Source of the DNA: Bacteroidota bacterium
GTDB lineage: Bacteria > Bacteroidota > Bacteroidia > Bacteroidales > CAIXZF01
Assembly: GCA_026391855.1 (NCBI GenBank)
Contig: JAPLDE010000043.1
Coordinates: 11,505-75,504 of the forward strand
Direction: 5' to 3'
Length of the DNA: 64,000 nt
The translations under genes were made by a program, and so were the position numbers. Positions 7,473-27,174 of the stretch are shown here, piece after piece. The first letter of the stretch is position 1; every line of letters starts with the position of its first letter. The notes under the pieces are model-generated. The model was not told the DNA's origin and did no database searches. It saw only the letters and a program-made list of their open reading frames with translations.

Positions 7473-7516
7473 AGTGATACTAATGCGCTTTATTGGTCGT
7501 TTTTGTTTTATCTTTG
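7473..7516 (+). promoter_or_regulatory. putative promoter: conserved upstream box AGTGATACTAATGCGCTTTA plus -7 box TATCTTTG
   Basis: The TAnnTTTG box is at 7509-7516. The 20-nt box starts exactly 36 nt upstream of it. The same box and spacing recur at 15713-15756. Confidence 0.45.
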
Positions 7517-7552
7517 CAAAAAAAAAATCGATCAAAATTAACAAACCCAATC

Positions 7553-8029: not shown

Positions 8030-8062
8030 GTTACTGATAATTATTAATAAAAATCAAATCAT

Positions 8063-8422
8063 ATGGAACATCTAACAAAGCAGACCTTCATCGATAAGGT
8101 CTTCAATTTTGAAGCAAATAAAGAATGGAAGTTTAAAGGAGAGCTTCCCTGTCTAATTGATTTCTATGCCGACTGGTGCGGACCCTGCAAAATGGTAGCC
8201 CCAATCCTGGAGGAACTTTCCAAAGAATTTGAAGGGAAGATCAACATTTATAAGATTGATACCGGGGAACAGCAGGAACTGGCCTCCGTCTTTGGCATCC
8301 GTAGTATTCCCTCCCTTTTATTCGTTCCCCTTGAAGGACAACCCCAGATGGCTATGGGCGCACTCCCCAAACAGTCGCTGCAAAGCGCCATCAATGAAAT
8401 CCTTTTAAACAACAAGAGTTAA
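8063..8422 (+). CDS. thioredoxin-family protein (cytoplasmic paralog of the preceding gene)
   Basis: The active site is WCGPCK. It is roughly 60 percent identical by eye to the mature part of the 7553-8029 product and has no signal peptide. Confidence 0.9.
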   Translation: MEHLTKQTFIDKVFNFEANKEWKFKGELPCLIDFYADWCGPCKMVAPILEELSKEFEGKINIYKIDTGEQQELASVFGIRSIPSLLFVPLEGQPQMAMGALPKQSLQSAINEILLNNKS

Positions 8423-8484: not shown

Positions 8485-9186
8485 TTACCCTTTCAGGCTG
8501 ATCTGTTCCAGGAGGTCAGGGTTATTAATGGTGATTGATTTGCCTTTGATTGAGATAATGCCCTCATTTTTAAATTTGATGAGCACCCGTGTAGTACTTT
8601 CCCTGGATAACCCGATCAGGTCGGCAAACTCCCGTTGTGAAAACGGAAGGTCGAACCGGTCATTCTCAAAGACGATACCGGAAAAATACAAAATGGCATC
8701 GGCTACTCTCCCGTAGATCTTTTTGTGAGATTGCTTGATGAAACGGTTAAAGTTATTCAAGCTGTCTTTACAAACCGAGATCAGTATCTGCTGCGCAAAT
8801 TCTCCGTTTTGCCTGATCAGCCGGTTGAAAACATTGATGTCAATATAGCAGATATGGCTGTTTTCCAGGGCAGCATAGGAATAGTGATTGATCCTGTCGC
8901 TGAACAGGGAAGGCAGGCCTAAATAAGTATGCTGCTTTACGATCTGAAGGATCTGTTCCCGCCCGTTGGGCTGACGGATAAACTCTTTCACCAGTCCGGT
9001 CTTAAGGTAAATGATGTGAGAGGTCATCGATCCTTCATGCAGGATGATATCCCCCTTTTTTACTTCATTTTCAAGGCTGTTCATGTTTACCAGTTCCAGT
9101 TCACTGATCTTAAGAACCGCAGCAGCACAGGAGATGTCCTTGCAATCATGGCAACTGTTCAGTTTTCCGGGTATGGCTGTTATCAT
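8485..9186 (-). CDS. Crp/Fnr-family transcriptional regulator with FNR-like cysteine set
   Basis: It has a cNMP-binding-like beta-roll and a C-terminal HTH (FADLIGLSRESTTRVLIKF). Cys12-x2-Cys15-x4-Cys20 plus Cys113 (ALENSHICYIDINVF) parallel the E. coli FNR C20/C23/C29/C122 cluster ligands. Confidence 0.9.
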   Translation of the reverse strand: MITAIPGKLNSCHDCKDISCAAAVLKISELELVNMNSLENEVKKGDIILHEGSMTSHIIYLKTGLVKEFIRQPNGREQILQIVKQHTYLGLPSLFSDRINHYSYAALENSHICYIDINVFNRLIRQNGEFAQQILISVCKDSLNNFNRFIKQSHKKIYGRVADAILYFSGIVFENDRFDLPFSQREFADLIGLSRESTTRVLIKFKNEGIISIKGKSITINNPDLLEQISLKG

Positions 9187-9258
9187 TGCCTGGTGTATTA
9201 GTTCTCAATAAAATGAGTATGATGTTACATCAAAACACAAAATTAATCATAAAATAAA

Positions 9259-9274
9259 TGTGATAATTATCACA
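9259..9274. promoter_or_regulatory. perfect CRP-type palindrome TGTGATAATTATCACA
   Basis: Read directly. It lies in the divergent spacer between the crp/fnr gene (start 9186) and the nifX-like operon (start 9393). A second perfect palindrome, TCACAGCTGTGA, lies at 9292-9303. Confidence 0.65.
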
Positions 9275-9392
9275 AACCATAATAAAAAGTATCACAGCTG
9301 TGAATCCATCTGCCATTTTGAAACGACCTAATTTTGAATGACATAAACATTTCAATTCTTTGTTCACCGGATTGAACCTAATATCATAATAA

Positions 9393-9734
9393 ATGAAAGT
9401 GGCAATACCAACGGATGACGGACTTCATATTTCTCCAAACTGTGAGCGGGCAAAGGGTTTCATGGTGGCTTCCGTGGAAAACGGGCATATTACCGGAGAA
9501 GAGATGCGCTGGAATCCCAGCCCTGATCCGACAGACCCCAGAACGGCGGCCCTCGCGGTCATAGAGGATTGCAATGTCATTATAGCAGGCGACAAATGGC
9601 ACAATTGTGCTTATGTACATGAGGTCACCGATAAAGAGATCATTGTTGTCAGGGAGAACATCATCACCAATGTGCTGGTCGATTACCTGACCATGATGCT
9701 CATGCGGGATTCAAATACCTGTTGTTGCCCCTGA
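9393..9734 (+). CDS. NifB/NifX-type (dinitrogenase Fe-Mo cofactor biosynthesis domain) protein with C-terminal CCCP
   Basis: MKVAIPTDDGLHISPNCERAKGFMVASVENG matches the usual MKIAIPT..G..IS.HFG.A..F start of this domain family. It ends in ...SNTCCCP. Confidence 0.6.
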   Translation: MKVAIPTDDGLHISPNCERAKGFMVASVENGHITGEEMRWNPSPDPTDPRTAALAVIEDCNVIIAGDKWHNCAYVHEVTDKEIIVVRENIITNVLVDYLTMMLMRDSNTCCCP

Positions 9735-11206
9735 TGATGACTCTTGAGAAGTATTTTGAGAAGTTCAGACGGGATATTGTTGGCCTGGATCAGACGTATC
9801 GTACACCCTACGGAAAAATGAAAATACGCTATGCCGACTGGATAGCAAGCGGCAGGCTTTACGGGCCGATCGAACAGGTTTTACTGAGAGATATAGGACC
9901 TTTTGTAGCCAATACCCATACCGAGACCAGTGAGACCGGTAAACTGATGACCCTGGCATACCGCTATGCCCATCAAAAGATCAAATCCCACGTCAATGCC
10001 GGTATCGACGACGCCATTATTACCACAGGGTTTGGAATGACGGGCGCCATCGTCAAGTTTCAGCGTATCCTGGGATTAAAGGTCTGCGGGTTGGTCAGTG
10101 AGCAAACGTGTATGAAAGACACTGAAAGACCGGTGGTTTTCATTACCCATATGGAGCATCATTCCAACCAGACCTCCTGGTACGAAACCTATGCTGATGT
10201 TGTTGTTATAGAGCCTGGCCCTGATCTGCAGGTTGATCCGGTAATACTGGAAGAATCTCTTCAGAAATATAAATACAGAAAAAGAAAAATAGGGGCTTTT
10301 ACTGCCTGTTCCAATGTGACCGGTATCCGGACACCCTATCACCAGATGGCCCGCCTGATGCATGAATACGGAGGGGTAGCTTTTATCGATTTTGCCGCTT
10401 CCGCACCTTATGACCCTATTGATATGCATCCGGCTGATCCCATGGAAAAACTGGACGGGATATATTTCTCCCCCCATAAATTCCTTGGCGGACCCGGTTC
10501 TTCCGGGGTGCTGGTCTTCGATTCAACCCTTTACCACAGTAAAGTACCCGATCAGCCAGGCGGAGGCACAGTCGACTGGACCAACGCCTGGGGCGAGTAT
10601 AAATTCATCGATGATATAGAGATCCGCGAAGACGGGGGAACACCCGGTTTCTTGCAGGCTATCCGTACTGCCCTTGCCATTGAATTAAAAGAAAAGATGG
10701 GATTGGATAATATTCATCAGCGTGAAAATGAATTAGTTAAACTAGCCTTTAAATCCTTAAAAACAGTGCCGGGTATTCAAATACTCGCCGATAACGTCGA
10801 AGATCGTCTGGGTGTCATCTCCTTCTATATCGAATCTGTTCATTATAATTTGATTGTCAGGATTTTAAGCGACAGGTTCGGCATCCAGGTTAGAGGCGGA
10901 TGCGCCTGTGCCGGTACTTATGGCCACTACCTGCTCGATGTCAGCTACGAAAAGTCAAAACGGATCACCGAAAAGATCAATACCGGCGATCTGTCCGACA
11001 AACCAGGCTGGGTAAGGGTTTCACTTCATCCTACCATGAAAGACAAGGAGGTACTGTTTCTTGCCGATGCATTGAAACAGATCAGTCAACACCATACCGA
11101 ATGGATGAAGGACTATACCTATAACAAACATACCAACGAATTTCAGCACAGGGAAGACAGCCGAAGCCAGGAAAGGGTGGAGGAGTGGTTTAATTTGAAA
11201 ATTTGA
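9734..11206 (+). CDS. class V aminotransferase-fold PLP enzyme (cysteine desulfurase / selenocysteine lyase-like)
   Basis: SPHKFLGGPGSSGVLVF carries the PLP-lysine motif, and RGGCACAG supplies a Cys-containing loop. The ATG at 9734 overlaps the upstream stop (TGATG). Confidence 0.8.
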   Translation: MMTLEKYFEKFRRDIVGLDQTYRTPYGKMKIRYADWIASGRLYGPIEQVLLRDIGPFVANTHTETSETGKLMTLAYRYAHQKIKSHVNAGIDDAIITTGFGMTGAIVKFQRILGLKVCGLVSEQTCMKDTERPVVFITHMEHHSNQTSWYETYADVVVIEPGPDLQVDPVILEESLQKYKYRKRKIGAFTACSNVTGIRTPYHQMARLMHEYGGVAFIDFAASAPYDPIDMHPADPMEKLDGIYFSPHKFLGGPGSSGVLVFDSTLYHSKVPDQPGGGTVDWTNAWGEYKFIDDIEIREDGGTPGFLQAIRTALAIELKEKMGLDNIHQRENELVKLAFKSLKTVPGIQILADNVEDRLGVISFYIESVHYNLIVRILSDRFGIQVRGGCACAGTYGHYLLDVSYEKSKRITEKINTGDLSDKPGWVRVSLHPTMKDKEVLFLADALKQISQHHTEWMKDYTYNKHTNEFQHREDSRSQERVEEWFNLKI

Positions 11207-11280
11207 AAATTTGAAAATTTGAAAATTTGAAAATCTGAAAATCTGAAAATTTGAAAATGCAAAAATCTGAAAATGTGAAT
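11193..11280. repeat. octamer tandem array (ATYTGAAA) x11 filling an intercistronic spacer
   Basis: Read directly: 5x atttgaaa, 2x atctgaaa, atttgaaa, atgcaaaa, atctgaaa, atgtgaat. The array contains the stop codon of the upstream gene (11204-11206) and runs into the ATG at 11279. Confidence 0.95.
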
Positions 11281-11530
11281 GATGATGTGTCCAAATTATT
11301 TGAACTGCCAATTGATTCATTATAAGGGAATTGTACAGGATGAGGAGCAGAGACAGGCCTACATTGCTGGTTTCTGCACTCATGATGAAAAGAAATGGGA
11401 AGAATGTAAGAGATTCAAAACCAATGCTGTCCTGCATTTCTGTCCCGATTTTGTGCTTCCCGATACCTCTTTAAACCTGGAGGAGATTATGGATCGTTTT
11501 GATGTAGAAACAACCGATCAACAAAAATAA
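11279..11530 (+). CDS. small cysteine-containing protein of unknown function (83 aa)
   Basis: The ORF sits in an operon position and has 5 Cys (C4, C10, C33, C43, C55). No family is recognised. Confidence 0.4.
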   Translation: MMMCPNYLNCQLIHYKGIVQDEEQRQAYIAGFCTHDEKKWEECKRFKTNAVLHFCPDFVLPDTSLNLEEIMDRFDVETTDQQK

Positions 11531-11540
11531 CTCATGCACT

Positions 11541-11858
11541 ATGCCAACAATTGAAATCGAAGGAAGAACATTTGAAGTGGACGGGGATGGTTTTTTATCG
11601 GAACCGGGAGCCTGGAATGATGAAGTTGCAGAACTCTTCGGAAAGTTTGACGGGATTGCCCCGCTTACCGAGAAACACTGGGCCGTCATCCGTATCATCA
11701 GGAGGAATTTTGAAGAGAAGGGCATGGCGCCCATGATTCGCACCATTTGCCAGGAAACCGGCCTGAAACTGAGGGAGATATACGAATTGTTCCCATTGGG
11801 TCCTGCCAGGGGAGCCTGCAGGGTGGCGGGTCTTCCAAAACCGGACGGGTGCGTTTAG
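11541..11858 (+). CDS. dsrC: DsrC/TusE-family sulfur relay protein, two-cysteine DsrC type
   Basis: The 105 aa product aligns along its whole length to the DsrC pattern (...HW.VI...R.....G..P..R........LYELFP.GPA..AC..AGLPKP.GCV). The C-terminal arm is C93-x10-C104-V105. Confidence 0.9.
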   Translation: MPTIEIEGRTFEVDGDGFLSEPGAWNDEVAELFGKFDGIAPLTEKHWAVIRIIRRNFEEKGMAPMIRTICQETGLKLREIYELFPLGPARGACRVAGLPKPDGCV

Positions 11859-11872
11859 TTAAAACCAGTAAT

Positions 11873-12508
11873 ATGGAATGGTATTATTATGTTTCTTTAG
11901 TTTCGTTTTTCGTTTGTGTGATCACCTTGGGTTGTCATCTGACCCGCCTCATCAGGCTTGGGAAACCGGAAGATTTTGCCCTTCCGGCAGGCTCTCCGCT
12001 TAAAGGCATCCAATATTCGTTTACCAGGGCCATGAACCCTTTCAAAAAAGAGTCGGCCTATCTTCATCTTCCTACATACACGGCCGGGATCTTTTATCAC
12101 CTGGGTTCTTTCCTGTCAATGCTGCTTTTCTTTTTTATCTGGTTCGGAAGAATGCCGGTTAGCAGCACACTGGCTTATATACTGGCTGCCATTCTGATGC
12201 TTACCGGGGGTTGTGGCATAGCCATACTGATCAAACGAGTATCGAAACGTTTACTCCTGGATTTGTCGAACCCCGATGATTATCTCTCGAATGTCCTGGT
12301 TACCCTTTTTCAGGGGATGACAGCCTTGCTGTTGTCAACCGGAAAGTTTTTATCCCTGTATTTTATCGCAGCCAGTTTGTTAATGCTCTGGTTTCCGGTT
12401 GGTAAGCTCAGGCATGCCCTGTATTTTTTTTCAGCCAGGTACCACCTTGGTTTTTTCTATGGTTACAGAGGAGTATGGCCTCCCTGGAAATTGAATAAGT
12501 TTTTATGA
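11873..12508 (+). CDS. NarI/DsrM/HdrE-like membrane cytochrome b-type subunit
   Basis: Start is chosen at MEWYYY. About 5 TM helices carry His pairs in helices (HLPTYTAGIFYH; RHALYFFSARYH). It is translationally coupled (ATGA) to the DsrK-like gene. The family call rests on architecture and context. Confidence 0.55.
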   Translation: MEWYYYVSLVSFFVCVITLGCHLTRLIRLGKPEDFALPAGSPLKGIQYSFTRAMNPFKKESAYLHLPTYTAGIFYHLGSFLSMLLFFFIWFGRMPVSSTLAYILAAILMLTGGCGIAILIKRVSKRLLLDLSNPDDYLSNVLVTLFQGMTALLLSTGKFLSLYFIAASLLMLWFPVGKLRHALYFFSARYHLGFFYGYRGVWPPWKLNKFL

Positions 12509-13803
12509 CAGAAGGACTTACCAGTGAGCAGATTGATAAGGGACTTGAGGTGTTTCAGGGACTGGCTGACAGTAAACTTTTAACGAACCTGAACAGTTGT
12601 GTTCATTGCGGGTTATGTGCCGAAAGCTGTATCTATTACCTGACGACAGGGGATCCCAGGCTGATCCCGGCCCGTAAGGTCGATCTGGTTGCTTCCCTAT
12701 ACAAACGGTACAATACCTTCACAGGCAGGATGATGCCCGGGTTGACGGGAGCCAGGAATTTGGACAGCAAGACTGTGGACGAAATGACTGACCTGTTATT
12801 CGGAGCTTGTACCATGTGTGGCAGATGCACCTCCCATTGTTCTGTAGGTATTGACATTGCCTACCTGGTTAAAACAGGCCGTACCATGCTCTCGAACATG
12901 GGATTGGTGCCGGCCAGCCTGCAATCCACAGTAAATGCGGCACTGGAAACGGGAAATAACATGGGCATACCGGAGGATGAATTCCTGTCTACCCTTCAAT
13001 GGATGGAAGAAGAGCTGGCCGATGATCTGCAGCATCCTGATGCCCGAATTCCCGTCAATGAAACAGGGAAAAACGTGCTCTATACACTCAACCCCAGGGA
13101 ACCGAAATTTTTTCCCCTCTCCATCTCGGCCATGGCAAAGATCTTTTTTGCGGCCGGAGAAAGCTGGACTCTGTCTACCAAGATGTATGATGTGACTAAC
13201 TATGCATACTTCTCTGGTAATCAACAGGAAGCATCCGTTATTGCAAAAAGGTTGAGCGATGAAATAGACCACCTGAAAACCCAAACCCTCGTATTGGCCG
13301 AATGCGGCCACGGATCCAGGGCTTTCCGGTGGGAGGCCCCGAATTACTTAAAACAGTGTTTCCCTTTCAGGGTGATGACCTCTGTTGAACTTATTGCCGG
13401 ATATCTTCGGGAGGGAAGGATCAGGCTCGACCCGGCAAAGATAAAGGAAAGAGTTACCCTTCATGATCCCTGTAACCTCGTTCGGAACGGAGGAGTAATC
13501 CTGGAACAGCGATATATTCTTCACCAGTTTGTTAAAGATTTTGTCGAGATGGATCCTGCAGGGACCGATAATTACTGTTGCGGGGGCGGGGGTGGCCAGC
13601 TTGCTATGAGCGAATACAACGTCCGAAGAATTAAGATCGCCGGGATCAAAGCCGAACAGATCAGGAAAACCGGGGCCGGGATTGTGGTTACTCCTTGTCA
13701 CAATTGTGTAGACCAGCTTTCCCAGATTAATTTCCATTATAAAATGGGTATTCAGGTAAAAACACTGGCTGAAATTGTGGCCGATGCCCTCATACTGGAT
13801 TGA
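12505..13803 (+). CDS. DsrK/HdrD-like Fe-S oxidoreductase with CCG domains
   Basis: It has two ferredoxin-type motifs (CVHCGLCAESC, CTMCGRCTSHC) and C-terminal cysteine-rich CCG-type motifs (HDPCN, NYCCGGGGG, TPCHNC). Confidence 0.8.
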   Translation: MTEGLTSEQIDKGLEVFQGLADSKLLTNLNSCVHCGLCAESCIYYLTTGDPRLIPARKVDLVASLYKRYNTFTGRMMPGLTGARNLDSKTVDEMTDLLFGACTMCGRCTSHCSVGIDIAYLVKTGRTMLSNMGLVPASLQSTVNAALETGNNMGIPEDEFLSTLQWMEEELADDLQHPDARIPVNETGKNVLYTLNPREPKFFPLSISAMAKIFFAAGESWTLSTKMYDVTNYAYFSGNQQEASVIAKRLSDEIDHLKTQTLVLAECGHGSRAFRWEAPNYLKQCFPFRVMTSVELIAGYLREGRIRLDPAKIKERVTLHDPCNLVRNGGVILEQRYILHQFVKDFVEMDPAGTDNYCCGGGGGQLAMSEYNVRRIKIAGIKAEQIRKTGAGIVVTPCHNCVDQLSQINFHYKMGIQVKTLAEIVADALILD

Positions 13804-13841
13804 TAATACATTGATTGTCAAATATATAAAACTTCTCTGTT

Positions 13842-15038
13842 ATGAATAATTTGATTTACCTCGACAATTCTGCCACCACTTTTCCAAAACCGGATGTAGT
13901 GTATGATTTCATGACCAGCTTCTACCGTGAACATGGTGTTAATCCCGGCCGGTCGGGTTTCGATGCAGCCATCGAAACGGAAGAGGTGATCCAGGATACC
14001 AGGAAAATATTGACTGACCTCTTTCACGGTGAAGATCCCAACCGGTTGACATTCAGCTATAATGCCAGTGATTCGCTCAATATGATCCTGCAGGGACTGG
14101 CAGTACCAGGCGACCATGTGATTACCACCATGCTGGAACATAACTCGGTACTGCGACCCTTGTATCACTTGGGCCTGGAAAAAATTATTGAGGTCACCTA
14201 TCTTCCTTTTGACATTCATGGGTATCTGAATCCTGATGATGTTAAGAAAGCCATCAGAAAGAATACGAAAATGGTGGTGGTTAACCACTGTTCCAATGTG
14301 ATCGGTACGGTTCAGCCCCTGGCAGAAATAGGCAGGATCTGCAAAGAGGCCGGGGTGTATTTTGTGGTGGATGGCAGCCAGAGTGCCGGAATTATTCCTG
14401 TTGATATGCAACAGATGGGAATTGATGTTTTTGTGTTTACTGGTCACAAGTGTCTCATGGGACCCACGGGCATAGGTGGTTCCTATGTTATGCCCGGTGT
14501 ACCGGTCCGTTTTACCCGGTACGGAGGCACAGGGGTTCGTTCTGCCCAAAAGACCCATCTTGAAGAATTTCCTTACAGGCTCGAATGCGGTACGATAAAT
14601 ATAGTCGGGGTTGCCGGAATATACGCCGGAGTTAAATGGGTGCTGGAACAGGGGATGGATAAGCTGCATAACCAGGAAATGAAGCTGTGGGATAAACTGA
14701 GGAAAGGCGTTCAGAAGATGGATAACGTGGTAACTTATTGCGCCGAAAGTATTGAAAATCAAAATTCTGTATTAAGCCTTAACATTCAGGGCTTTGATTC
14801 CGGAGATGTTGGAACCATGCTGGATGTGGATTACAACATCGCCTGCCGTACCGGCCTGCAATGCGCCCCGTTGGTGCATACCCAACTGGGTACTGATAAA
14901 ATCCATGGTACAGTGAGGCTGAGCATCGGGCCGTTCAATACTGAAGAACATATTGATGCTGCCCTTTGCGCCATCGATGAAATTGCTTCTATCACCCGGC
15001 CGGAGATCCGAATTATGAATGCAAAAGCGCATGTCTGA
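13842..15038 (+). CDS. cysteine desulfurase family protein (class V aminotransferase fold)
   Basis: IYLDNSATTFPKP is a typical NifS/CsdA-like start, and FTGHKCLMGPTGIGG carries the PLP lysine. The length is 398 aa. Confidence 0.85.
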   Translation: MNNLIYLDNSATTFPKPDVVYDFMTSFYREHGVNPGRSGFDAAIETEEVIQDTRKILTDLFHGEDPNRLTFSYNASDSLNMILQGLAVPGDHVITTMLEHNSVLRPLYHLGLEKIIEVTYLPFDIHGYLNPDDVKKAIRKNTKMVVVNHCSNVIGTVQPLAEIGRICKEAGVYFVVDGSQSAGIIPVDMQQMGIDVFVFTGHKCLMGPTGIGGSYVMPGVPVRFTRYGGTGVRSAQKTHLEEFPYRLECGTINIVGVAGIYAGVKWVLEQGMDKLHNQEMKLWDKLRKGVQKMDNVVTYCAESIENQNSVLSLNIQGFDSGDVGTMLDVDYNIACRTGLQCAPLVHTQLGTDKIHGTVRLSIGPFNTEEHIDAALCAIDEIASITRPEIRIMNAKAHV

Positions 15039-15354
15039 CTACCAAAACCCGGCTACGCATAATTTACAGCAGTCGCTCGCCAAAGCAGGCCAGGCAGTTC
15101 GGCCTGTTCAGGTTTTAGAGGTCTGTAAACCAGCTTATTCCGGAAAAATCCTGGAAAAGAACCATGAAAGGATGGCCTCCGTTATGATGCCCTGCCGGAT
15201 CTCCGTTTATGAAAAGGAAGATGGACTGGCATATATTTCATTGCTCAATGCAGATGCGATGGCTGCGGCTTTGCCTGCCACCATTTCAGTGCCCATGAAG
15301 GCTGCCGCCGATGAAATCCTCGAAATAGTAGGGTCAGTGACAGGATTGTTTTAA
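15031..15354 (+). CDS. DUF302-like protein (short)
   Basis: VLEVCKPAYSGKILEKNHERMASVMMPCRISVYEKEDG resembles the DUF302 core (..CNP.......LLPC.V.VYE..G). It overlaps the upstream stop by 8 nt. The N-terminus looks shorter than usual. Confidence 0.55.
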   Translation: MSDYQNPATHNLQQSLAKAGQAVRPVQVLEVCKPAYSGKILEKNHERMASVMMPCRISVYEKEDGLAYISLLNADAMAAALPATISVPMKAAADEILEIVGSVTGLF

Positions 15355-18919: not shown

Positions 18920-21601
18920 CTACCAAACAGGCAGCACGCAATTAGCAATTCTTTTCTGAAGCGTTTTTTGGAAATCATCCTGACTTTGGATCATGAGGGC
19001 AGCGTTTTCTTTATGACAGGTGAGGCAGGCGCCAACGGTGAGGATACGGTGTTGTTCTTCGATGCTGAAAGGTCTGATATTCAATCGGGTAGAGGAGATG
19101 TCCTTTCTTTCCTTTAAAAACGGGATCCAGGCATCTTCGGGAAGGCTGTCTGCTTTTTTGGCTGTAAAACGGGGTTCAAATTTCCAGCGGCCGGTTTTTC
19201 CGGTAACCTGGTAGGTGAGTATTCCTCTTCCGTAACCAATAGCCAGGGGATCGTTATGGCAGGATTTGCAGGAGCGGCCTTTTGCCAGGGTGGTATGGCC
19301 CGAAGCAGGGGCATACAGCCGGCGGTTGATGGTTTCAGGTTTACCGGTAAACGAACCTATATCGATACTCATGATCATTCCGGGCGTCATAGTAACGATC
19401 TTTTTCTCCCTGATACCCAACACCGGCTTGTCAGCCAGGAACTTATCCTTGTATTCCACCCAGCTTCCTTGTTCAGGGCGGCCTGTCAGCATGTTATCAC
19501 CCAAGGTTTCTTTTTCATAGGCATTGTGGCAGCCTATACATTGGGGAACCCACTCGGTGTGACAGGCTTCACAGGAAAGCCTGCTGTGGGCTTTCCCCTT
19601 TGTACAGGCAGCCGCCGGGGGTTTCATTTTCATTGTTTTACCAGTGGTTTTTCCCACCATCATCCAGGCACTGTCGCCCGCTAAACAGGTGTTTGACAGT
19701 GGTCTGTTTCCTTTTTCCGTTACGGCCATCTTTCTTTCATCCTCTTTCCAGCCGCGTAAGCCATAAATAAGCTGTGTTTCCCGGTCTGCCTCCCTGAGTT
19801 TTACAGTATTGCCTGTATCTTTACGGTGGCAGTCAATGCATTGTACCATAACAGCCTGCTCTTTGTGCCTGTATGCGTTTCCGTCTCCCATCAGCTCATA
19901 CGAGCCATGGCAGTCGATACAACCCATCCCTTTCTGATAATGGATATCAGAACCTGTATAGCTGAAAACCCGGCCATCCGGGAGAATTTTAAATCCTTTC
20001 AGGTTTTTAACTTCGTTGGGTTTCAGTAATGTTTCATGCCAGCCTTCGTAGCTGGTGGCGATGCGTCCGGAACGGCTGTGACAGCTCATACAGCGGTCGT
20101 TGGTTATGTTTAAGCTTATGGAAGGGTGATAGAGCGGCAGGACTCCTTGTTTTCCCCTTTGTTGTTCAAATTCAGCCCTGGCCTGTTTTTCATAACCCAG
20201 GTGACAGGCATTGCAGCCGCCACCCCTGTCGAGCCAGGCAGTTGGTCCGGGTTTCGTCTTCTCATTGCCGCTATGACATCCCACGCAAAGGTGCTGAAGG
20301 TGTCTGTCGGCCGCCGTGTTCCCAAGGTTGGCCAACCCTGCAACACCATCGGGGGTTTTGTTCTCCCCGAATGCAAAACGGTCGACACTGATCATGCCGG
20401 TAAGGGTAGCCATCAGGCTGCCGGGAATCCGGTCACAGATTCCGGGATGACATCCCGGTGAACCACATGTCATCCGCGCATTTGACAGGTTTCCGGGGAC
20501 CATTTCCATATGCCTGTGGGCCTGTGTTTTATCAAGGGTGAACGGATCTCCCCGGTGACAACTGAAACAACCGGTCTGATGCACATTATGGGATTCTGTA
20601 AGACCTTTCATCCCTCCATGACAAGCCACACAACCTTCCGCCCTTCCCAGAACGACGAAAACAGGTTTAACCGGGGTGTGAAAGGTAAGAGGTTTCCATC
20701 TCAGGGCGGTTTTCAGATGATAAGAGTGCTCCCATGGCCATTGCCACTTCCAGTTTTCTCCCCTGAAAAAGAAGGCAACAAGGGTAAGAATCAGGTAAAC
20801 GAATAAAAAACAAAACAGCAGGTACTTAACGACTTTTCTGATTGAAGGCCGGAACAGAGGGAGAAGAAAAATCACCGCAAGTACCAGAAAGGAAAAAACA
20901 AGCAGGTAAACAGGATGGCTGAAAAAATGCAGCATTTCCTGGAAACCGACAAAATACCAGGGCCCTTTTAAGATATTCTCATCCATGGTGGAGAGAGGTG
21001 CCCGGAAGAAGAAGCTTAGCAGCCCGATCATGAATAAGGTAATAAGGAGTGTTTTCAGACTTCCCCAAATCGTCCGTGCATGGTCATATATAACGATCAC
21101 CAACAGAAGCGTGGCTGTCGAAAGGTGATGAATATAAACCGGCTGGAAGTTTTTCTCATTTCCCATGAATGTCTGCTGTAATATTCTACCGCCAACAGGA
21201 AGTGATTCAAGCAATCCCGCCAGTATTCGTCTTGCCTGCAGGCTGTCGGGATCGGCTTTCAGGATAAACCCTGAAATCATGGCATATGCCGTAACAAGCA
21301 GCGAAAGGGTCACTCCCAGCCAGGTATAGCGGCTTTTTATGTTGTCTTCCGTAGATTGTTTCAGATGATCAACCAGGTGGATAAGGGTAAATACCAGGAA
21401 AAGCTGGGCACTCCAGTAATGCATGTTACGTATCAGTGAGGCATAGGGATTGGCTGTTACCATCAGGGTTACAGACAAGTAGGGAAGGCTAATATCATAA
21501 GGGATGGCCAGGAAAATGCCGGACAGTATGCACAAAAGCAGGGCTGCCGTGGCAATCCGGCCATAGGTATCAAAAAGAAGCAACCTCAGACAGTTCTTCA
21601 C
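18920..21601 (-). CDS. cytochrome b (b6 + subunit IV-like, complete) fused to a multihaem (11-12 haem) c-type cytochrome domain
   Basis: The N-terminal ~290 aa carry His61-x13-His75 (IRNMHYWSAQLFLVFTLIH), His159-x14-His174 and GPWYFVGFQEML at the PEWY position, followed by 3 more TM helices. The C-terminal ~570 aa carry 11 CxxCH motifs (CVACH, CFSCH, CVGCH, CNACH, CMSCH, CIDCH x2, CEACH, CIGCH, CKSCH, CLTCH) plus CGSPGCH. Confidence 0.85.
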   Translation of the reverse strand: MKNCLRLLLFDTYGRIATAALLLCILSGIFLAIPYDISLPYLSVTLMVTANPYASLIRNMHYWSAQLFLVFTLIHLVDHLKQSTEDNIKSRYTWLGVTLSLLVTAYAMISGFILKADPDSLQARRILAGLLESLPVGGRILQQTFMGNEKNFQPVYIHHLSTATLLLVIVIYDHARTIWGSLKTLLITLFMIGLLSFFFRAPLSTMDENILKGPWYFVGFQEMLHFFSHPVYLLVFSFLVLAVIFLLPLFRPSIRKVVKYLLFCFLFVYLILTLVAFFFRGENWKWQWPWEHSYHLKTALRWKPLTFHTPVKPVFVVLGRAEGCVACHGGMKGLTESHNVHQTGCFSCHRGDPFTLDKTQAHRHMEMVPGNLSNARMTCGSPGCHPGICDRIPGSLMATLTGMISVDRFAFGENKTPDGVAGLANLGNTAADRHLQHLCVGCHSGNEKTKPGPTAWLDRGGGCNACHLGYEKQARAEFEQQRGKQGVLPLYHPSISLNITNDRCMSCHSRSGRIATSYEGWHETLLKPNEVKNLKGFKILPDGRVFSYTGSDIHYQKGMGCIDCHGSYELMGDGNAYRHKEQAVMVQCIDCHRKDTGNTVKLREADRETQLIYGLRGWKEDERKMAVTEKGNRPLSNTCLAGDSAWMMVGKTTGKTMKMKPPAAACTKGKAHSRLSCEACHTEWVPQCIGCHNAYEKETLGDNMLTGRPEQGSWVEYKDKFLADKPVLGIREKKIVTMTPGMIMSIDIGSFTGKPETINRRLYAPASGHTTLAKGRSCKSCHNDPLAIGYGRGILTYQVTGKTGRWKFEPRFTAKKADSLPEDAWIPFLKERKDISSTRLNIRPFSIEEQHRILTVGACLTCHKENAALMIQSQDDFQKTLQKRIANCVLPVW

Positions 21602-21686
21602 CTTCGGAATTTACAGGGTAAAAATAGACAGGATTCCCATTGATCCTGAAAGAAAACAGCCGCAAATCTGAATATGGTTTACCAAA

Positions 21687-22076
21687 TTAGATTTTAACGG
21701 TAATGGTACCGGTTATTTGATCAAGGGAGAAGGGAAGGGGATGTAAGGATTCAAACGCAGGTCCTTTCAGCACCTTACCGGTAGTGGCATCGTAGCGGGA
21801 ACCATGGCACGGACAAAGCAGGATGTTGTTTTCCGACCGGGTGATCCGGCAGCCGGCGTGGGTGCAACGGCTGGAAAAAACCATCGTTTTACCGGGATTT
21901 CTGACAATGATCACCTCATCAAACAGGTTGATCCCGTCTGCCAGGTTCCTGAACTTTTTTTGAGAGACGCTGGCTGTCAGGTACTTATCCTGGGTTAATA
22001 TCATCCTACTCCACAACCAGCTAAGCGGAAGCAGCGAAGATACTCCTAAGATCCTGAGAAATGCCTGTCTGTTCAT
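21687..22076 (-). CDS. Rieske [2Fe-2S] protein
   Basis: CTHAGC and CPCHGS boxes are present, including the disulfide cysteines typical of bc-type Rieske proteins. There is an N-terminal anchor/signal ([16 protein letters not shown]). Confidence 0.9.
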
Positions 22077-22093: not shown

Positions 22094-22101
22094 CAAAACT
22101 A
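22094..22101 (-). promoter_or_regulatory. candidate -7 box (TAGTTTTG on the minus strand) for the Rieske/cyt b operon
   Basis: caaaacta on the plus strand is TAnnTTTG on the minus strand. It lies 59.5 nt from the centre of the TGTGA-N6-TCACA site. Confidence 0.35.
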
Positions 22102-22145: not shown

Positions 22146-22161
22146 TGTGACGGAAATCACA
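22146..22161. promoter_or_regulatory. perfect CRP-type site TGTGACGGAAATCACA
   Basis: Read directly. It lies between the divergent Rieske (22076) and molybdoenzyme (22252) starts. An extra half-site, TGTGATAATT, lies at 22168-22177. Confidence 0.65.
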
Positions 22162-22204
22162 ATATTGTGTGATAATTTTGGATAATGGACATTTTTTATT
22201 ATTA

Positions 22205-22232
22205 TATCTTTGTTTTGATAAGTAATTATCAA
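22205..22232 (+). promoter_or_regulatory. candidate -7 box TATCTTTG followed by palindrome TTGATAAgtaaTTATCAA
   Basis: The TAnnTTTG box is at 22205-22212, 58.5 nt from the CRP-type site centre. A 7-N4-7 inverted repeat lies at 22215-22232, just upstream of the ATG at 22252. Confidence 0.4.
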
Positions 22233-22251: not shown

Positions 22252-24498
22252 ATGAGTTCAAGGAGAGATTTTATTAAGATATCCGCGCTTGGAGTAGGAT
22301 CGACCACTGTGCTGGCGTCTGCAGCCAGGTTCGGTTTTGGATCACCACTGGAGGATATCCTGGGTTTGCCGAAGGATGAATTTCCCTCGTTTAAGCGTTA
22401 CCCGACTTATTGTGAGGTGTGTTTCTGGAAATGTGCCGGTTGGACTCATGTCGACATGGACGGCAGAATCAGGAAGATCACCGGCAACATTGAAGATCCT
22501 CAATGTAACGGGAGGTTATGCCCGAGAGGAACCGGAGGGGTAGGGATGTACAATGACAAGGACCGGCTGAAGAAGCCCCTGATCAGGGTGAGCAGGAATG
22601 GTGAACAAACCTACCGGGAGGCCAGCTGGGACGAAGCCCTTGATCTTGTCGCCGGAAAAATGAAAACACTGGCCAAAAAATATGGACCGGAAAGCATGGC
22701 TTTATTTAATCATGGATCGTCCGGTCATTACTTCACCCATTTATTGAATGCCTTTGGCTCCGGCAATATTGCCGCTCCGTCTTATGCCCAGTGTCGCGGA
22801 CCGAGGGAAGTAGGGTTTGAGACCACTTTCGGGGATTCTGTCGGAAGCCCTGAAGTTACCGATATCAGGGATACCCGCTGCCTGGTATTGATCGGTTCCC
22901 ATATCGGGGAGAACATGCATAACGGGCAGGTGCAGGAAATGTCTGATGCCATTGACAAAGGAGCTGTCATTATCACCGTTGATCCCCGCTTATCGACAGC
23001 AGCCAGCAAATCCAAGTTCTGGCTGCCCATCAAACCGGCCACGGATATTGCACTATTGTTGTCGTGGATCCATGTGCTGATCTATGACAATTTATACAAC
23101 AAGGCTTATGTTGAAAAATATACAGAAGGTTTCAGCCAGCTGAAGGATCATGTAAAGGACATGACACCGGAATGGGCCTATGGGATCACGACCATTGCAC
23201 CGGATGTCATCCGGGCAACGGCCCGTGAAATGGCCGATGCAGCCCCGTCGGTGATCGTTCATCCGGGTCGTCATGTGACCTGGTATGGGGATGATGTTCA
23301 GCGAAGCCGTGCCATCGCCATCCTGAATGCCTTGCTCGGTTCATGGGGACAGCGGGGTGGTTTCTTTTTCAGGGAAGGATTTAAACTTCCCGACTATCCC
23401 TGTCCGTCTTATCCAACACCTTCATGGTCGTGGAAAGAAACCCTGAACGGAAGGTACCCCCTGGCAAAGATGGCTGTGACCAATGCTTTTGTTGAATCGT
23501 CTATCCCTGAAACCGGAAAGGAACACATCATCAGGGGTTGGATAGTGTCAGGCACCAACCTGACCATCGCCATGCCCCTGAAGGAGTCGCTGATGAGGGC
23601 TGTACAATCGCTTGAATTACTGGTGGTTGTTGACACTATGCCCATGGAGATAACCGGTTTTGCCGATGTGGTCTTTCCGGAGTGCACCTACCTCGAACGG
23701 TATGACGATCTTCGCGATTCCCCTCATCGTGAACCTACCATCGCCTTAAGGATGCCTGCTGCTGAGCCTTCCTACGAGACCAAACCGGCATGGTGGATAG
23801 CCAGGCAGCTGGGTCTGAAACTCGGGTTAGACGCCTGGTTCAACTATAAAGACTATAAGGAAGTTCTCGACTGGCAGTTGCGCCAGGTAGGTTCATCACT
23901 GGAAGAAATGGAGAAAGTGGGTGTTAAAAGACTAAAACGGACGAAAGGGCCTTTATATATCGGAGAAGGAGAGGATTACTCTTTCAGGACACCCTCCGGT
24001 AAGATACAGCTATGGTCGAAAGAGCTGGCTGACGCCGGATTTGATGCCATCCCTTCATACACACCTCACCCTGAGCCTCCCGACGGATATTACCGCCTGA
24101 TATACGGAAGAGCTCCCATGCATACTTTCAGCCGTACGGCCAACAACCCCAACCTGGTGGCCCTGATGCCGGAAAATTCGGTGTGGGTCAACCCTAAGGT
24201 GGCTAAATTATGGGGACTGATCAAGGATCAGAAAGTATGGCTAAAAAACCAGGACGGAGTGATTTCCACCTTCCCCATTAAGGTCAGGATCACCGAAAGG
24301 ATAAGATGGGATTCGGTGTATATGGTCCATGGCTTCGGTCATCATCATAAACCATTGACCAATGCTTACGGCAGGGGAGTGAATGATACGGAAATGATCA
24401 CCCGGGTGATGACCGACCCGGTGATGGGTGGAACGGGTATGAGAGGAAACTTTATCACCTTTATTAAAGAAGATCCGCGAAAGGAGGCAATATCATGA
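22252..24498 (+). CDS. molybdopterin oxidoreductase catalytic subunit, PsrA/PhsA/SrrA-like, Tat-exported
   Basis: The signal SSRRDFIKISALGVG is twin-arginine type. The N-terminal FeS motif is CEVCFWKCAGW...CPRG. A Cys-containing AQCRGP segment is a possible Mo ligand. The length is 748 aa and the gene is followed by PsrB- and PsrC-type subunits. Confidence 0.85.
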   Translation: MSSRRDFIKISALGVGSTTVLASAARFGFGSPLEDILGLPKDEFPSFKRYPTYCEVCFWKCAGWTHVDMDGRIRKITGNIEDPQCNGRLCPRGTGGVGMYNDKDRLKKPLIRVSRNGEQTYREASWDEALDLVAGKMKTLAKKYGPESMALFNHGSSGHYFTHLLNAFGSGNIAAPSYAQCRGPREVGFETTFGDSVGSPEVTDIRDTRCLVLIGSHIGENMHNGQVQEMSDAIDKGAVIITVDPRLSTAASKSKFWLPIKPATDIALLLSWIHVLIYDNLYNKAYVEKYTEGFSQLKDHVKDMTPEWAYGITTIAPDVIRATAREMADAAPSVIVHPGRHVTWYGDDVQRSRAIAILNALLGSWGQRGGFFFREGFKLPDYPCPSYPTPSWSWKETLNGRYPLAKMAVTNAFVESSIPETGKEHIIRGWIVSGTNLTIAMPLKESLMRAVQSLELLVVVDTMPMEITGFADVVFPECTYLERYDDLRDSPHREPTIALRMPAAEPSYETKPAWWIARQLGLKLGLDAWFNYKDYKEVLDWQLRQVGSSLEEMEKVGVKRLKRTKGPLYIGEGEDYSFRTPSGKIQLWSKELADAGFDAIPSYTPHPEPPDGYYRLIYGRAPMHTFSRTANNPNLVALMPENSVWVNPKVAKLWGLIKDQKVWLKNQDGVISTFPIKVRITERIRWDSVYMVHGFGHHHKPLTNAYGRGVNDTEMITRVMTDPVMGGTGMRGNFITFIKEDPRKEAIS

Positions 24499-25028
24499 GA
24501 TATGCAATGGCTATCGATACAAGGAAGTGCGTGGGTTGCAGCGACTGTGTAGTGGCTTGCCAGACGGAGAATGATGTTCCCATCGGTTTTTGCCGTGACT
24601 GGGTGAGTGAGACGGTTGATGGCAGCTACCCCAATACCGTGATCGAATTGCGGTCGGAACGATGCAACCATTGTGAGTATGCACCTTGTGTCCGCTGCTG
24701 CCCTACCCATGCCAGTCATTACGAGGAAGGCGGTATCGTTGTAGTAACCCACCACAAATGCATCGGGTGCGGAGCCTGTATCCAGTCCTGTCCTTACGAA
24801 GCCCGCTATTCCCACCCCGAAGGATGGGTTGATAAGTGTACGTTTTGTATCCACCGGGTCAGAAAGGGGGAACAACCTGCGTGTGCAGCTGTATGCCCTA
24901 CCAAATGCATCTGTTTTGGTGACCTGGAGGATCCGAATTCAGAGGTTACCAATGTTCTTAAGAACAGAAAATACAAAGTGCTGGCCCCTGAAGCAGGCAC
25001 GAGACCCCAGATATTTTATCTTGTATAA
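24495..25028 (+). CDS. 4Fe-4S ferredoxin-type electron transfer subunit (PsrB/NrfC/DmsB-like)
   Basis: It has several CxxCxxCxxxCP-type motifs (CVGCSDCVVAC, CNHCEYAPCVRCCP, CIGCGACIQSCP, CTFC...C..VCP). It shows ATGA overlap with the catalytic subunit gene. Confidence 0.9.
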   Translation: MRYAMAIDTRKCVGCSDCVVACQTENDVPIGFCRDWVSETVDGSYPNTVIELRSERCNHCEYAPCVRCCPTHASHYEEGGIVVVTHHKCIGCGACIQSCPYEARYSHPEGWVDKCTFCIHRVRKGEQPACAAVCPTKCICFGDLEDPNSEVTNVLKNRKYKVLAPEAGTRPQIFYLV

Positions 25029-25052
25029 AACCAGTAACCAATAAGTTACATT

Positions 25053-25994
25053 ATGAAAGAAGAATTATTTGTCAGCGGAAGAAATATACCGGATATCGAT
25101 CCCTTTCTGAATATCTGGCATTGGCAGATTCCGCTGTATCTTTTCCTGGGCGGGCTGGCTGCCGGCATCCTTTTCTTTGCCGGTTTGTTTACTTTACTGG
25201 GAAAGGACAAGGAAATGCCGGCCACCGTTAAATGGGCTACGCTGATTACTCCTTTAGCCCTGATCCTTGGTCTTTTCTTTCTTTTCCTCGACCTCAAACA
25301 CAAATCTTACTTCTGGCAGCTTTACACGACCATGCGCTTCGAATCACCCATGTCGTGGGGTGCCTGGGTATTGCTGGCCATCACTCCTCTGTCAATGGTC
25401 TGGGTGGGAAGCTATATGAAAGAGATGTTTCCCGGCTGGTCATGGAAACTGGCCTTACTCGACAGGTTTGAGGCCTGGACCATTCGTTACCGGTTTTACC
25501 TGGCCTGGGTAATCGTCGTATTGTCGGTGGTGCTGGGCATTTATACCGGTATCCTTTTATCGGCCTTTAACGCCCGGCCATTGTGGAACAATTCCATTCT
25601 CGGTCCGTTGTTCCTGGTATCCGGAATGTCGACCGGTGCTGCCGTGATCATCCTGATGAGTAAGAGTCATTATGAGAAAACGATCATGTCGCGGATAGAT
25701 CTGTTGCTGATCGTGATTGAGATTTTTTTCATCTTCCACATGATCATGGGTTTCAGGGCGGGATCAGCAGTACAGATCGCAGCGGCCAACCTGTTTGTAG
25801 GCGGACCGTTTACCATCAATTTCTGGGTTTTTGTTGTTTTACTCGGGTTATTGTTCCCGGCTCTGCTGGAGACCCTGGAGTTGAGGGGTTTCCGCGTTCC
25901 GGCCGTCGTTCCGGCCATTCTCATCCTGATGGGCGGGTTTATGTTCCGCTTCATCATGGTTGAGGCCGGACAGATCACCAGGTATTTATATTGA
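25053..25994 (+). CDS. NrfD/PsrC-family integral membrane quinol-interacting subunit
   Basis: The 313 aa product has about 8 TM helices and occupies the third position of a Mo/FeS/membrane operon. Confidence 0.8.
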   Translation: MKEELFVSGRNIPDIDPFLNIWHWQIPLYLFLGGLAAGILFFAGLFTLLGKDKEMPATVKWATLITPLALILGLFFLFLDLKHKSYFWQLYTTMRFESPMSWGAWVLLAITPLSMVWVGSYMKEMFPGWSWKLALLDRFEAWTIRYRFYLAWVIVVLSVVLGIYTGILLSAFNARPLWNNSILGPLFLVSGMSTGAAVIILMSKSHYEKTIMSRIDLLLIVIEIFFIFHMIMGFRAGSAVQIAAANLFVGGPFTINFWVFVVLLGLLFPALLETLELRGFRVPAVVPAILILMGGFMFRFIMVEAGQITRYLY

Positions 25995-26014
25995 TCATCA
26001 TATATATTAAAAAA

Positions 26015-26557
26015 ATGGAAAAATCAGAAGAAAAGCCGGGTTGGCGGAAAGGTAACTTTTACGTGAATCCATACCTGGGAGGGCTGATGCTAGGATTGGT
26101 ACTGCTGGCAACTTTTTACATTACCGGCAGGGGACTGGGTGCCAGCGGTGCCGTGAAGAACACAGTGGTTACCACCGTGCATACCCTGGCACCGGCGCAT
26201 GCCGAATCCTCTCATTACTATAGTAAATTCCTCAGTACCAATACACAACCCATGAACAACTGGTTGGTTTTTGAGGTGTTGGGCGTACTGGCCGGGGCAT
26301 TCCTGTCGGGTTTAATATATAACAGGCTGAATTTCAGGATAGAACATTCACCAAAGATCACTTCCCGCCGTCGGCTTATTTTCGCTTTTGCCGGTGGAAT
26401 GTTGTTTGGATTCGGCTCGCAGCTGGCCAGGGGATGCACCAGTGGTGCCGCCCTGAGCGGAATGGCCGTACTGTCGGCTGCAGGTTTTATTACCATGATG
26501 GCGATCTTCGGAACAGCCTACGTTTTTGCTTACATTCTCAGAAAGAACTGGATCTAA
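26015..26557 (+). CDS. YeeE/YedE-family sulfur (thiosulfate/selenium)-compound transporter component, half 1
   Basis: The polytopic product carries the conserved GFGSQLARGCTSGAALSG cysteine motif. Start is chosen at MEKSEE. Confidence 0.8.
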   Translation: MEKSEEKPGWRKGNFYVNPYLGGLMLGLVLLATFYITGRGLGASGAVKNTVVTTVHTLAPAHAESSHYYSKFLSTNTQPMNNWLVFEVLGVLAGAFLSGLIYNRLNFRIEHSPKITSRRRLIFAFAGGMLFGFGSQLARGCTSGAALSGMAVLSAAGFITMMAIFGTAYVFAYILRKNWI

Positions 26558-26569
26558 AAAAATATCATT

Positions 26570-27163
26570 ATGACTGGACCATTGATTCCTTTAGGATATA
26601 TCCCCGAAGCATGGAATAACGTTTTTGCTGTTTTGCTGGGTATGGGATTCGGGTTTACCCTCGAATCCTCCGGGTTCTCTTCTTCCAGGAAGATCATGGG
26701 AACCTTTTACGGCTATGACTTCGTTGTGCTGAAAGTGTTCTTTACCGCAGCCATTACAGCGGTTGTAGGGCTTCTGTATCTCGATCAGATTGGCTGGGCT
26801 GACTTTTCAGCCATGTACGTATTGCCGACCTACATGGCTGCAGCCATCACCGGGGGAGTGATCATGGGAATGGGATTTGCTATGGGTGGCTATTGCCCGG
26901 GAACAAGTTTTTGTGCTGTTGCCATAGGGAAAATTGATGCCCTGCTTTTCTCAGCCGGTCTACTGGTTGGAATCTTCATCTTTTCAGAAGCCTTCCCGCT
27001 GATGGAAAAAATATATGAAAGCGGAAACCTGGGTGCGCTCCGGGTAAATGAAGCCCTGGGAATATCTGCCGGGTTGTTCACCTTTCTTCTCATACTCATA
27101 GCCCTCGGTATGTTCTGGGTCGCCACCATTGTACAAGGTAAGGTGAAAAAGGTTGAATATTAA
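26570..27163 (+). CDS. YeeE/YedE-family transporter component, half 2
   Basis: The polytopic product carries GFAMGGYCPGTSFCA. It is adjacent to half 1, as in split YeeE/YedE pairs. Confidence 0.8.
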   Translation: MTGPLIPLGYIPEAWNNVFAVLLGMGFGFTLESSGFSSSRKIMGTFYGYDFVVLKVFFTAAITAVVGLLYLDQIGWADFSAMYVLPTYMAAAITGGVIMGMGFAMGGYCPGTSFCAVAIGKIDALLFSAGLLVGIFIFSEAFPLMEKIYESGNLGALRVNEALGISAGLFTFLLILIALGMFWVATIVQGKVKKVEY

Positions 27164-27174
27164 GCACTTATCCT

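Follow-up and report, generated by a model that had tools for sequence, protein, structure and literature searches.

The Regulator Gene and Its Palindrome

The window analyzed here is a stretch of 64,000 nucleotides from a Bacteroidales genome (Bacteroidota bacterium, GenBank assembly GCA_026391855.1, contig JAPLDE010000043.1, positions 11,505 to 75,504). It encodes a regulator of the CRP/FNR superfamily and, divergent from it, an operon that includes DsrC, and a perfect palindrome of the form TGTGA-N6-TCACA lies in the spacer between them. Judged by its sequence and that of its relatives, the regulator is a representative of a conserved Bacteroidales family which pairs the four cysteines of FNR with DNA sites of the CRP type. 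The two central features are as follows:

8485..9186, minus strand: gene of the CRP/FNR-superfamily regulator, an open reading frame (ORF) of 233 aa

9259..9274, no strand: main site TGTGATAATTATCACA, a perfect 16-bp palindrome common to the regulator gene and the divergent operon (27.5 bits)

The position of the palindrome reported in the initial annotation was confirmed: TGTGATAATTATCACA occupies 9259-9274, and its center (9266.5) is 80 nt from the regulator start codon, an ATG at 9186. Exact TGTGA-N6-TCACA sites were found three times in the window while 0.05 are expected, and none of 100 shuffled windows reached three. A position weight matrix (PWM) was built from the sites of 78 orthologous loci, which are described below. 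It gave two strong matches only in the window, the site at 9259 (27.5 bits, the best) and a site at 22146 (19.7 bits).

The Regulator Protein and Its Relatives

The regulator has a cNMP-binding-type beta-roll and a C-terminal Crp-type helix-turn-helix, the domains that define the CRP/FNR superfamily. The Pfam matches above cut-off are cNMP_binding (PF00027, E = 1.1e-15), HTH_Crp_2 (PF13545, E = 1.1e-16), and PF00325. Among the NCBIfam models, FNR is the top match, and the CRP model NF008732 gives 48.9 bits at a cut-off of 266. Foldseek against PDB returned only CRP/FNR structures with template modeling (TM) scores around 0.45, which do not separate FNR from CRP.

The protein contains five cysteines (12, 15, 20, 113, and 139), none of them C-terminal. 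The motif C12-x2-C15-x4-C20 together with C113 had been recognized from the sequence as an FNR-like four-cysteine set, and this holds. In the alignment with Aliivibrio fischeri FNR (phmmer/HMMER versus PDB), the four [4Fe-4S] ligands face C12, C15, C20, and C113; one gap accounts for the third cysteine, which comes after x4 in the regulator and after x5 in FNR. BLASTP against Escherichia coli proteins gave 25% identity to FNR (E = 1e-19) and 20% to CRP (E = 6e-14); the outcome for FNR matches the PDB alignment.

The recognition helix reads S194-R-E-S-T-T-R200, and the proposal that it follows the CRP pattern and not the FNR pattern is supported by both alignments. In BLASTP, R195, E196, and R200 are opposite R180, E181, and R185 of CRP (G-C-S-R-E-T-V-G-R). 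In the PDB alignment, the segment G-L-S-R-E-S-T-T-R-V-L faces the FNR helix G-L-T-V-E-T-I-S-R-L-L. The residues that contact cAMP in CRP, E72, R82, and S83, are replaced by L91, H101, and Y102, which are invariant in the family, and therefore the regulator is no cAMP receptor.

The protein search collected 361 homologues, and conservation was counted in the best 120 of them, with 63-100% identity. All named members among these 120 are from Bacteroidetes/Bacteroidales metagenome-assembled genomes (MAGs). C12, C15, C20, C113, R195, E196, and R200 are invariant in 120 of 120, and C139 is replaced by serine in 111. One genome per species was scanned for orthologous loci, and 78 were found in Bacteroidales-type genomes, at 47-72% protein identity. 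They include MAGs of Prolixibacteraceae, Draconibacterium, Marinilabiliaceae, and Lentimicrobiaceae, and the cultured species Prolixibacter bellariivorans and P. denitrificans. Over this whole range of identity, nearly all orthologues keep the cysteine motif and the helix S-R-E-S-x-T-R; departures are limited to R200K in Prolixibacter and a probable defect in locus L059.

The two Prolixibacter orthologues have the helix S-R-E-S-V-S-K. Their upstream palindrome, TGTGAAATATTTCACA, is merely 15-18 nt from the estimated start, and their gene neighborhood is different and not sulfur-related. The helix and the site may co-vary in this genus. In three other loci (L021, L052, and L078), a second regulator-like gene is convergent to the regulator; it may be a paralogue, which could share the operator.

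An exhaustive profile search revealed 283 representative clusters at E <= 1e-30, and 137 full-length best representatives were classified. CxxC with a third cysteine 3-8 residues later and C113 was observed in 50 of the 137, and CxxC with C113 but without the third N-terminal cysteine in 64. Their helices are of RExxxR, KExxxR, TExxxR, or VExxxR type. This variation of cysteines and helices indicates that the protein in the window belongs to one subfamily of a large clade of CRP/FNR proteins, no member of which appears to be characterized.

Sites in Orthologous Loci

The related-genome DNA surveyed for sites was 20 kb per genome, 1.25 Mb in total, of which 86% is coding. Exact TGTGA-N6-TCACA sites were found 77 times, while about 1.3 are expected from base composition, and 69 of the 77 are intergenic even though most of the DNA is coding. 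An exact site is present about 55-80 nt from the regulator start codon in about 42 of the 78 loci, a site with one mismatch in about 15 more, and versions with two mismatches are recognizable in several of the rest. The initial annotation had named conservation of the cysteine set and of the site, and enrichment of the motif, among the points to be checked. Both the cysteines and the site are conserved widely, with an equivalent of the main palindrome upstream of most orthologues, and the motif is well above background in the window as well as in the related loci. The DNA specificity proposed there, CRP-like, agrees with the invariant R195, E196, and R200 and with the cognate palindrome upstream of the gene.

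The sites follow the consensus TGTGAT-N4-ATCACA. Of 138 half-sites, 99 have T at position 6 and 17 have A, and no base preference is seen 5' of TGTGA; the sites are therefore CRP-like and not Rex-like. The genes downstream of the intergenic sites are the regulator (40), DsrE/DsrF-like (27), NifX-like (21), class-V aminotransferase (3), and SQR-like (2) genes. The three aminotransferase genes head the divergent operon where the NifX-like gene is missing. The SQR-like flavoprotein operons also encode DUF1641, DsrC, and DsrE. In a few cases, polysulfide-reductase operons are preceded by sites as well.

The palindromes could in principle be operators of another factor, either a Rex-type NADH sensor (TTGTGAA-N4-TTCACAA) or a CRP paralogue, with their adjacency to the regulator gene being incidental. 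Rex sites have the same TGTGA-N6-TCACA core, the form TGTGAA...TTCACA is seen at the SQR and Prolixibacter sites and at part of the proximal DsrE sites, and a second regulator-like gene adjoins in three loci. However, the preference for T at position 6 and the absence of TT before TGTGA make Rex itself unlikely as the binding factor, and the site follows the regulator gene across 47-72% identity at a fixed promoter distance. CRP-DNA contacts and FNR/CRP specificity-swap experiments tie the R-E-x3-R helix to the TGTGA half-site, and the invariant helix of the family predicts precisely such a half-site. Ownership of the sites by another factor is thus considered very improbable, and the regulator itself is taken as the protein that would bind them.

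Promoter Geometry

The following elements are located between the regulator gene and the divergent operon:

9238..9245, minus strand: candidate -7 box of the regulator gene, TAATTTTG, 21.5 nt from the site center, with the site at about -33.5

9231-9238, minus strand: alternative, weaker box of the regulator gene, GTGTTTTG, 28.5 nt from the site center, with the site at about -40.5

9281..9296, no strand: auxiliary half-site element, 22 bp from the main site; only its TCACA half (9292-9296), the left half of TCACAGCTGTGA, matches

9292-9303, no strand: second palindrome, TCACAGCTGTGA, 12 bp, seen in the sequence

9329..9336, plus strand: predicted -7 box of the NifX-like/DsrC operon, TAATTTTG, based on its sequence and on the spacing in DsrE promoters

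The sigma-A box of Bacteroidetes, TAnnTTTG, spans -12 to -5 (PMC9723704). In 35 of 54 regulator promoters, a box nAnnTTTG (typically gCAACTTTGca) starts 29.5 nt from the site center, which puts the site at about -41.5. FNR and CRP activators of class II classically bind at this position, which points to positive autoregulation. Autoregulation as such had been proposed from the window alone, and the fixed 29.5-nt spacing supports it; the minus-strand box TAATTTTG noted at 9245-9238 is present.

On the operon side, GTGA half-sites are found at exactly 22, 44, 66, and 88 bp from the main site, each in 19-28 of 54 loci. They are all on that side and in one orientation, and their second half is not conserved. 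The last element of the series and the TAnnTTTG box of the NifX operon are 40.5 nt apart. The DsrE promoters follow the same spacing: the distance from site to box is 62.5 nt in 19 and 40.5 nt in 6, and the element at 40.5 nt is in some cases another full site and in others a half-site. In the window, the main site center (9266.5) is 62.5 nt from the box at 9329 (about -74.5), and the center of the half-site (9288.5) is 40.5 nt from it (about -52.5). The control of the DsrC operon suggested in the initial annotation fits this arrangement, in which half-sites phased by 22 bp run from a full site up to the TAnnTTTG box.

The second palindrome, TCACAGCTGTGA, exists at 9292-9303 as reported, and its TCACA half coincides with the half-site at +22. 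As a palindrome it is not conserved: the form TCACA-N2-TGTGA was found in 0 of the 78 orthologous loci, and perfect 12-bp palindromes are common, with 24 in the window. Therefore, TCACAGCTGTGA was rejected as an independent operator.

The Divergent Operon and the Sulfur Island

The genes of the divergent operon were annotated with Pfam and NCBIfam:

9393..15354, plus strand: divergent target operon; the same gene order divergent from the regulator is seen in many of the 78 loci

9393, plus strand: NifX-like

9722, plus strand: SufS-like class-V aminotransferase

11279, plus strand: 83-aa Cys-rich protein

11541, plus strand: DsrC

about 11873, plus strand: HmcE/DsrM-like membrane protein

12505, plus strand: HmcF/TmcB/DsrK-like protein

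13842, plus strand: cysteine desulfurase

15019, plus strand: DUF302

The gene maps indicate that the regulator is embedded in a sulfur island in most of the 78 genomes. The operon headed by DsrE encodes DsrE/DsrF-like, TusA, MvhD/FlpD-like, two HdrA-like flavoproteins, an Fe-S protein, and a NifX-like protein. Three of the products are a 915-aa HdrA/GltD-like fusion, a 665-aa HdrA-like protein, and a 370-aa Fe-S protein. This operon adjoins the DsrC operon in L001, L004, L007, and about 25 other loci, where one or two sites precede it. With tblastn, no counterpart of the DsrE operon of the relatives was found within the 64-kb window. On the other side of the regulator, two tandem thioredoxin genes (7493-8422) are directly downstream of and convergent with it. 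The first of them has an N-terminal hydrophobic segment, and thioredoxin genes recur close to the regulator in several other loci.

Across these loci, it was shown by sequence comparison that an invariant CRP-type helix is paired with CRP-type palindromes at fixed promoter distances before the regulator's own gene and before sulfur operons.

The Site between the Respiratory Operons

The second strong PWM match lies between two divergent operons with the following features:

22146..22161, no strand: second strong site, TGTGACGGAAATCACA, in the spacer between the Rieske/cytochrome and psrABC operons (19.7 bits)

22168..22183, no strand: auxiliary half-site with TGTGA at 22168-22172, 22 bp from the site at 22146, its center 29.5 nt before the psrA -7 box

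22205..22212, plus strand: predicted psrA -7 box, TATCTTTG, 51.5 nt from the full site (about -63.5), with the half-site at about -41.5

22094..22101, minus strand: predicted Rieske/cytochrome -7 box, TAGTTTTG, 52.5 nt from the site center

22252..27825, plus strand: candidate target operon encoding a PsrA/PhsA-like molybdopterin oxidoreductase, a 4Fe-4S subunit, an NrfD-type membrane subunit, two YeeE/YedE-like sulfur-transport halves, and a rhodanese

18920..22076, minus strand: candidate target operon encoding a Rieske protein (21687-22076) and an 893-aa cytochrome b/multiheme cytochrome c fusion (18920-21601)

Control of the respiratory operons through this site had been proposed, and the proposal is supported for the window but not for the family as a whole. 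In its favor are the score, the tandem layout of full site and half-site, and the location between divergent operons. Two closest psrA relatives were retrieved. One of them, L080 (83% PsrA identity, same divergent arrangement), carries an exact TGTGATCATAATCACA in the same spacer, 50.5 nt before the box. The site is absent from the other close relative and from distant psrA loci, whose details are given below with the weighing of the model. The site at 22146 is probably functional but lineage-specific.

Six more distant psrA homologues close to the regulator (L015, L027, L029, L033, L039, and L044) share an upstream element, roughly TTTTACAAAACTAACAATTATTTTTTATGCACATTTGT, and no TGTGA palindrome was found within 260 bp upstream of psrA in any of them. 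Control of psrA as a conserved feature of the family was rejected on this basis, and the shared element suggests that psr is under another regulator in these lineages or has a special promoter.

Other Palindromes in the Window

The third exact TGTGA-N6-TCACA match, which the initial annotation does not mention, is at 19558-19573, inside the ORF of the 893-aa cytochrome (18920-21601, minus strand). It encodes, in frame, the C-E-A-C-H of a heme CxxCH motif and scores 9.8 bits. It was rejected as an operator and is probably a coding coincidence.

The PWM scan also detected 24-mers at 807-830, 887-910, and 2477-2500, of which two are identical (GTAATGTGAACATCAGGACACGAT) and one is a variant. Perfect 16-bp palindromes start at 2494 and 30641. 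These 24-mers and palindromes may belong to a repeat family unrelated to the regulator.

Proposed Mechanism and Signal

The model proposed here is that of a dimeric CRP/FNR factor, typical of Bacteroidales (Prolixibacteraceae, Draconibacterium, and related MAGs), which carries an oxygen-labile cluster, reads CRP-type sites, and controls the sulfur island. Its probability is estimated at about 0.6. The most likely role of C12, C15, C20, and C113 is to bind an oxygen-labile [4Fe-4S] cluster like that of FNR, and with such a cluster the protein would be active under anoxia only. With the CRP triad R195/E196/R200 in place of the E-x-x-S-R of FNR, the helix is predicted to read TGTGAT-N4-ATCACA, not TTGAT-N4-ATCAA. 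The sites would activate transcription, being upstream of the core promoters and not overlapping them. At its own promoter, a site at about -41.5 would give positive autoregulation. At the NifX-like/DsrC and the DsrE-TusA-MvhD-HdrA-like operons, the full site would be extended toward the promoter by 22-bp half-sites, with the proximal element at about -52.5. The shared site at 22146 probably drives both the psrABC-yeeE-rhodanese and the Rieske/cytochrome operons. From the sites before its own gene and before sulfur and respiratory operons, the regulator may thus be seen as a local switch of sulfur-compound respiration and of the sulfur-trafficking island. It is soundly predicted at the DNA level, while the sensor level, including the oxygen/redox sensing proposed in the initial annotation, is inferred from the four invariant cysteines and their alignment to the FNR ligands.

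Several observations weigh against this model. On the protein side, the regulator is not an FNR in the strict sense, having neither the E-x-x-S-R helix nor TTGAT-N4-ATCAA boxes; its cysteines are spaced x2/x4, whereas E. coli FNR has x2/x5; the dimer-switch residues I151 and D154 of FNR align to S142 and N145 in the PDB alignment; and the NCBIfam FNR model NF008365 gives 66.4 bits, well below its cut-off of 228. The AlphaFold2 model, from an alignment of 33 sequences, has a mean predicted local distance difference test (pLDDT) score of 66.6 and falls below 50 at residues 1-21, and therefore it is unreliable for the cysteine geometry. On the DNA side, some proximal sites are TGTGAA/TTCACA, a form also recognized by Rex. 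Of the two close psrA relatives, L079 (84% PsrA identity) has no site in the psrA spacer, and the more distant psrA loci have half-sites only or the other conserved element. In the window itself, the best regulator box is 21.5 nt from the site center (site at about -33.5) and not at the usual 29.5 nt. Autorepression could be the outcome in this genome, and the sign of autoregulation is therefore uncertain here. The observed regulon is narrowly sulfur-related, which fits a sulfur-species signal as well as oxygen, and as the survey covered 20 kb per genome, a wider regulon is possible.

The narrow regulon leads to a reading in which the sites and the regulon are the same but the four cysteines form a thiol or persulfide switch, comparable to SqrR, CstR, or FisR, so that the protein would sense its substrate (sulfane sulfur, polysulfide, or sulfide) and not oxygen. 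All target classes handle sulfur, namely the DsrE/TusA/Hdr-like operon, the DsrC/HmcEF-like operon with its desulfurases, the SQR-like operons, and Psr with YeeE and rhodanese, and the gene itself sits within the sulfur island in most of the 78 genomes. The 64 of 137 related representatives without the third N-terminal cysteine point in the same direction, and therefore four-cysteine ligation is not universal in the wider clade. In the family itself, however, the four cysteines are invariant and correspond one to one to the [4Fe-4S] ligands of the solved FNR, and the persulfide sensors described so far rely on two cysteines and come from different fold families. A pure thiol switch is accordingly regarded as unlikely. 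In a related and similarly doubtful form, the four-cysteine module would signal the availability of reactive sulfur in the form of polysulfide or persulfide. Its cysteines would become persulfidated, or the assembly of its cluster would depend on sulfur delivered by the desulfurase and the sulfur-relay proteins under its control. If true, this would be a new class of signal for the CRP/FNR superfamily. The 22-bp half-site arrays would then reflect a cooperative, filament-like loading of dimers, which is undescribed for the CRP/FNR family.

A cluster may also be present without oxygen being the signal. Nitric oxide (NO) or the status of Fe-S or sulfur supply would then be sensed, as with NsrR, IscR, or HcpR2 of Desulfovibrio. 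The divergent operon does encode two cysteine-desulfurase-type enzymes and a NifX-like cofactor-carrier domain, and an NO-responsive Fe-S protein of the CRP/FNR superfamily, HcpR2, has been proposed in Desulfovibrio. The targets, however, are respiratory and sulfur-relay genes; no suf/isc biogenesis genes and no hcp or NO-detoxification genes were seen beside the sites. By their record titles, the source genomes are mostly from habitats of oxic-anoxic transition, such as the Lac Pavin water column, fens, and sediments, which agrees better with oxygen. A signal of this kind is given a slightly lower chance than the persulfide switch, and the oxygen-labile cluster is retained as the preferred explanation.

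Comparison with Known Systems

The closest characterized relative by BLASTP is FNR. The regulator shares with FNR of E. coli and A. fischeri the two-domain fold family and the arrangement of three N-terminal cysteines and a central one (C20, C23, C29, and C122 in E. coli), and its autoregulatory site at about -41.5 is at the class-II position of FNR. The helices (R-E-S-T-T-R versus V-E-T-I-S-R) and the sites (TGTGA-N6-TCACA versus TTGAT-N4-ATCAA) are different. Moreover, the regulon seen here is a local sulfur island while that of FNR is globally anaerobic, and the promoters are of the Bacteroidetes -7/-33 type. The proteins of the four-cysteine group of Matsui et al. all carry the ExSR helix (PMC3590769), and the regulator, with four cysteines and a non-ExSR helix, breaks this pattern.

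The combination of a [4Fe-4S] protein with the TGTGA-N6-TCACA box has a precedent in Fnr of Bacillus subtilis, B. cereus, and Paenibacillus, an oxygen-sensing protein which recognizes this box (PMC12937710). The cluster is held differently: the ligands of Bacillus Fnr are C227, C230, C235, and Asp141, whereas the regulator ends at residue 233, lacks a C-terminal cysteine cluster, and would use N-terminal positions. With E. coli CRP, the regulator shares the R180/E181/R185 triad and the TGTGA(T) half-site in a 16-bp palindrome with a 6-bp spacer. Unlike CRP, it has lost the cAMP-contacting residues, as described above, and CRP is without a cysteine-bearing N-terminal extension.

Among the CRP/FNR proteins of anaerobes, HcpR1 of Desulfovibrio has an R-E-R helix and autoregulatory TGTGA-N6-TCACA sites, the same box as here, and is thought to be a heme sensor, and HcpR2 is the proposed Fe-S sensor. 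Both regulate hcp, nap, and nitrosative-stress genes. The cysteine pattern of the regulator is that of FNR. The genes next to the sites included nothing resembling hcp, although no search was aimed at hcp itself. The best match among solved structures is CrpPg of Porphyromonas gingivalis (PG0396, PDB 2GAU, E = 1.7e-16), also from Bacteroidota and described as a cAMP-independent global regulator (PMC12040651). It aligns only from residue 25 onward and is without the N-terminal cysteine segment. In the literature that was searched, no characterized FNR-type oxygen sensor of Bacteroidota was found.

The family is abundant in Bacteroidales of anoxic freshwater, peat, and sediment, and it marks a conserved and largely unstudied sulfur island with DsrC, DsrE, TusA, Hdr-like, HmcEF-like, and Psr proteins. 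It offers a testable account of when Bacteroidales turn on the respiration of sulfur compounds, and the regulator-operator pair is defined well enough for biochemistry and for the prediction of regulons in metagenomes. Compared with the systems above, the family is a counter-example in which cluster cysteines of the E. coli FNR type are combined with DNA reading of the CRP type.

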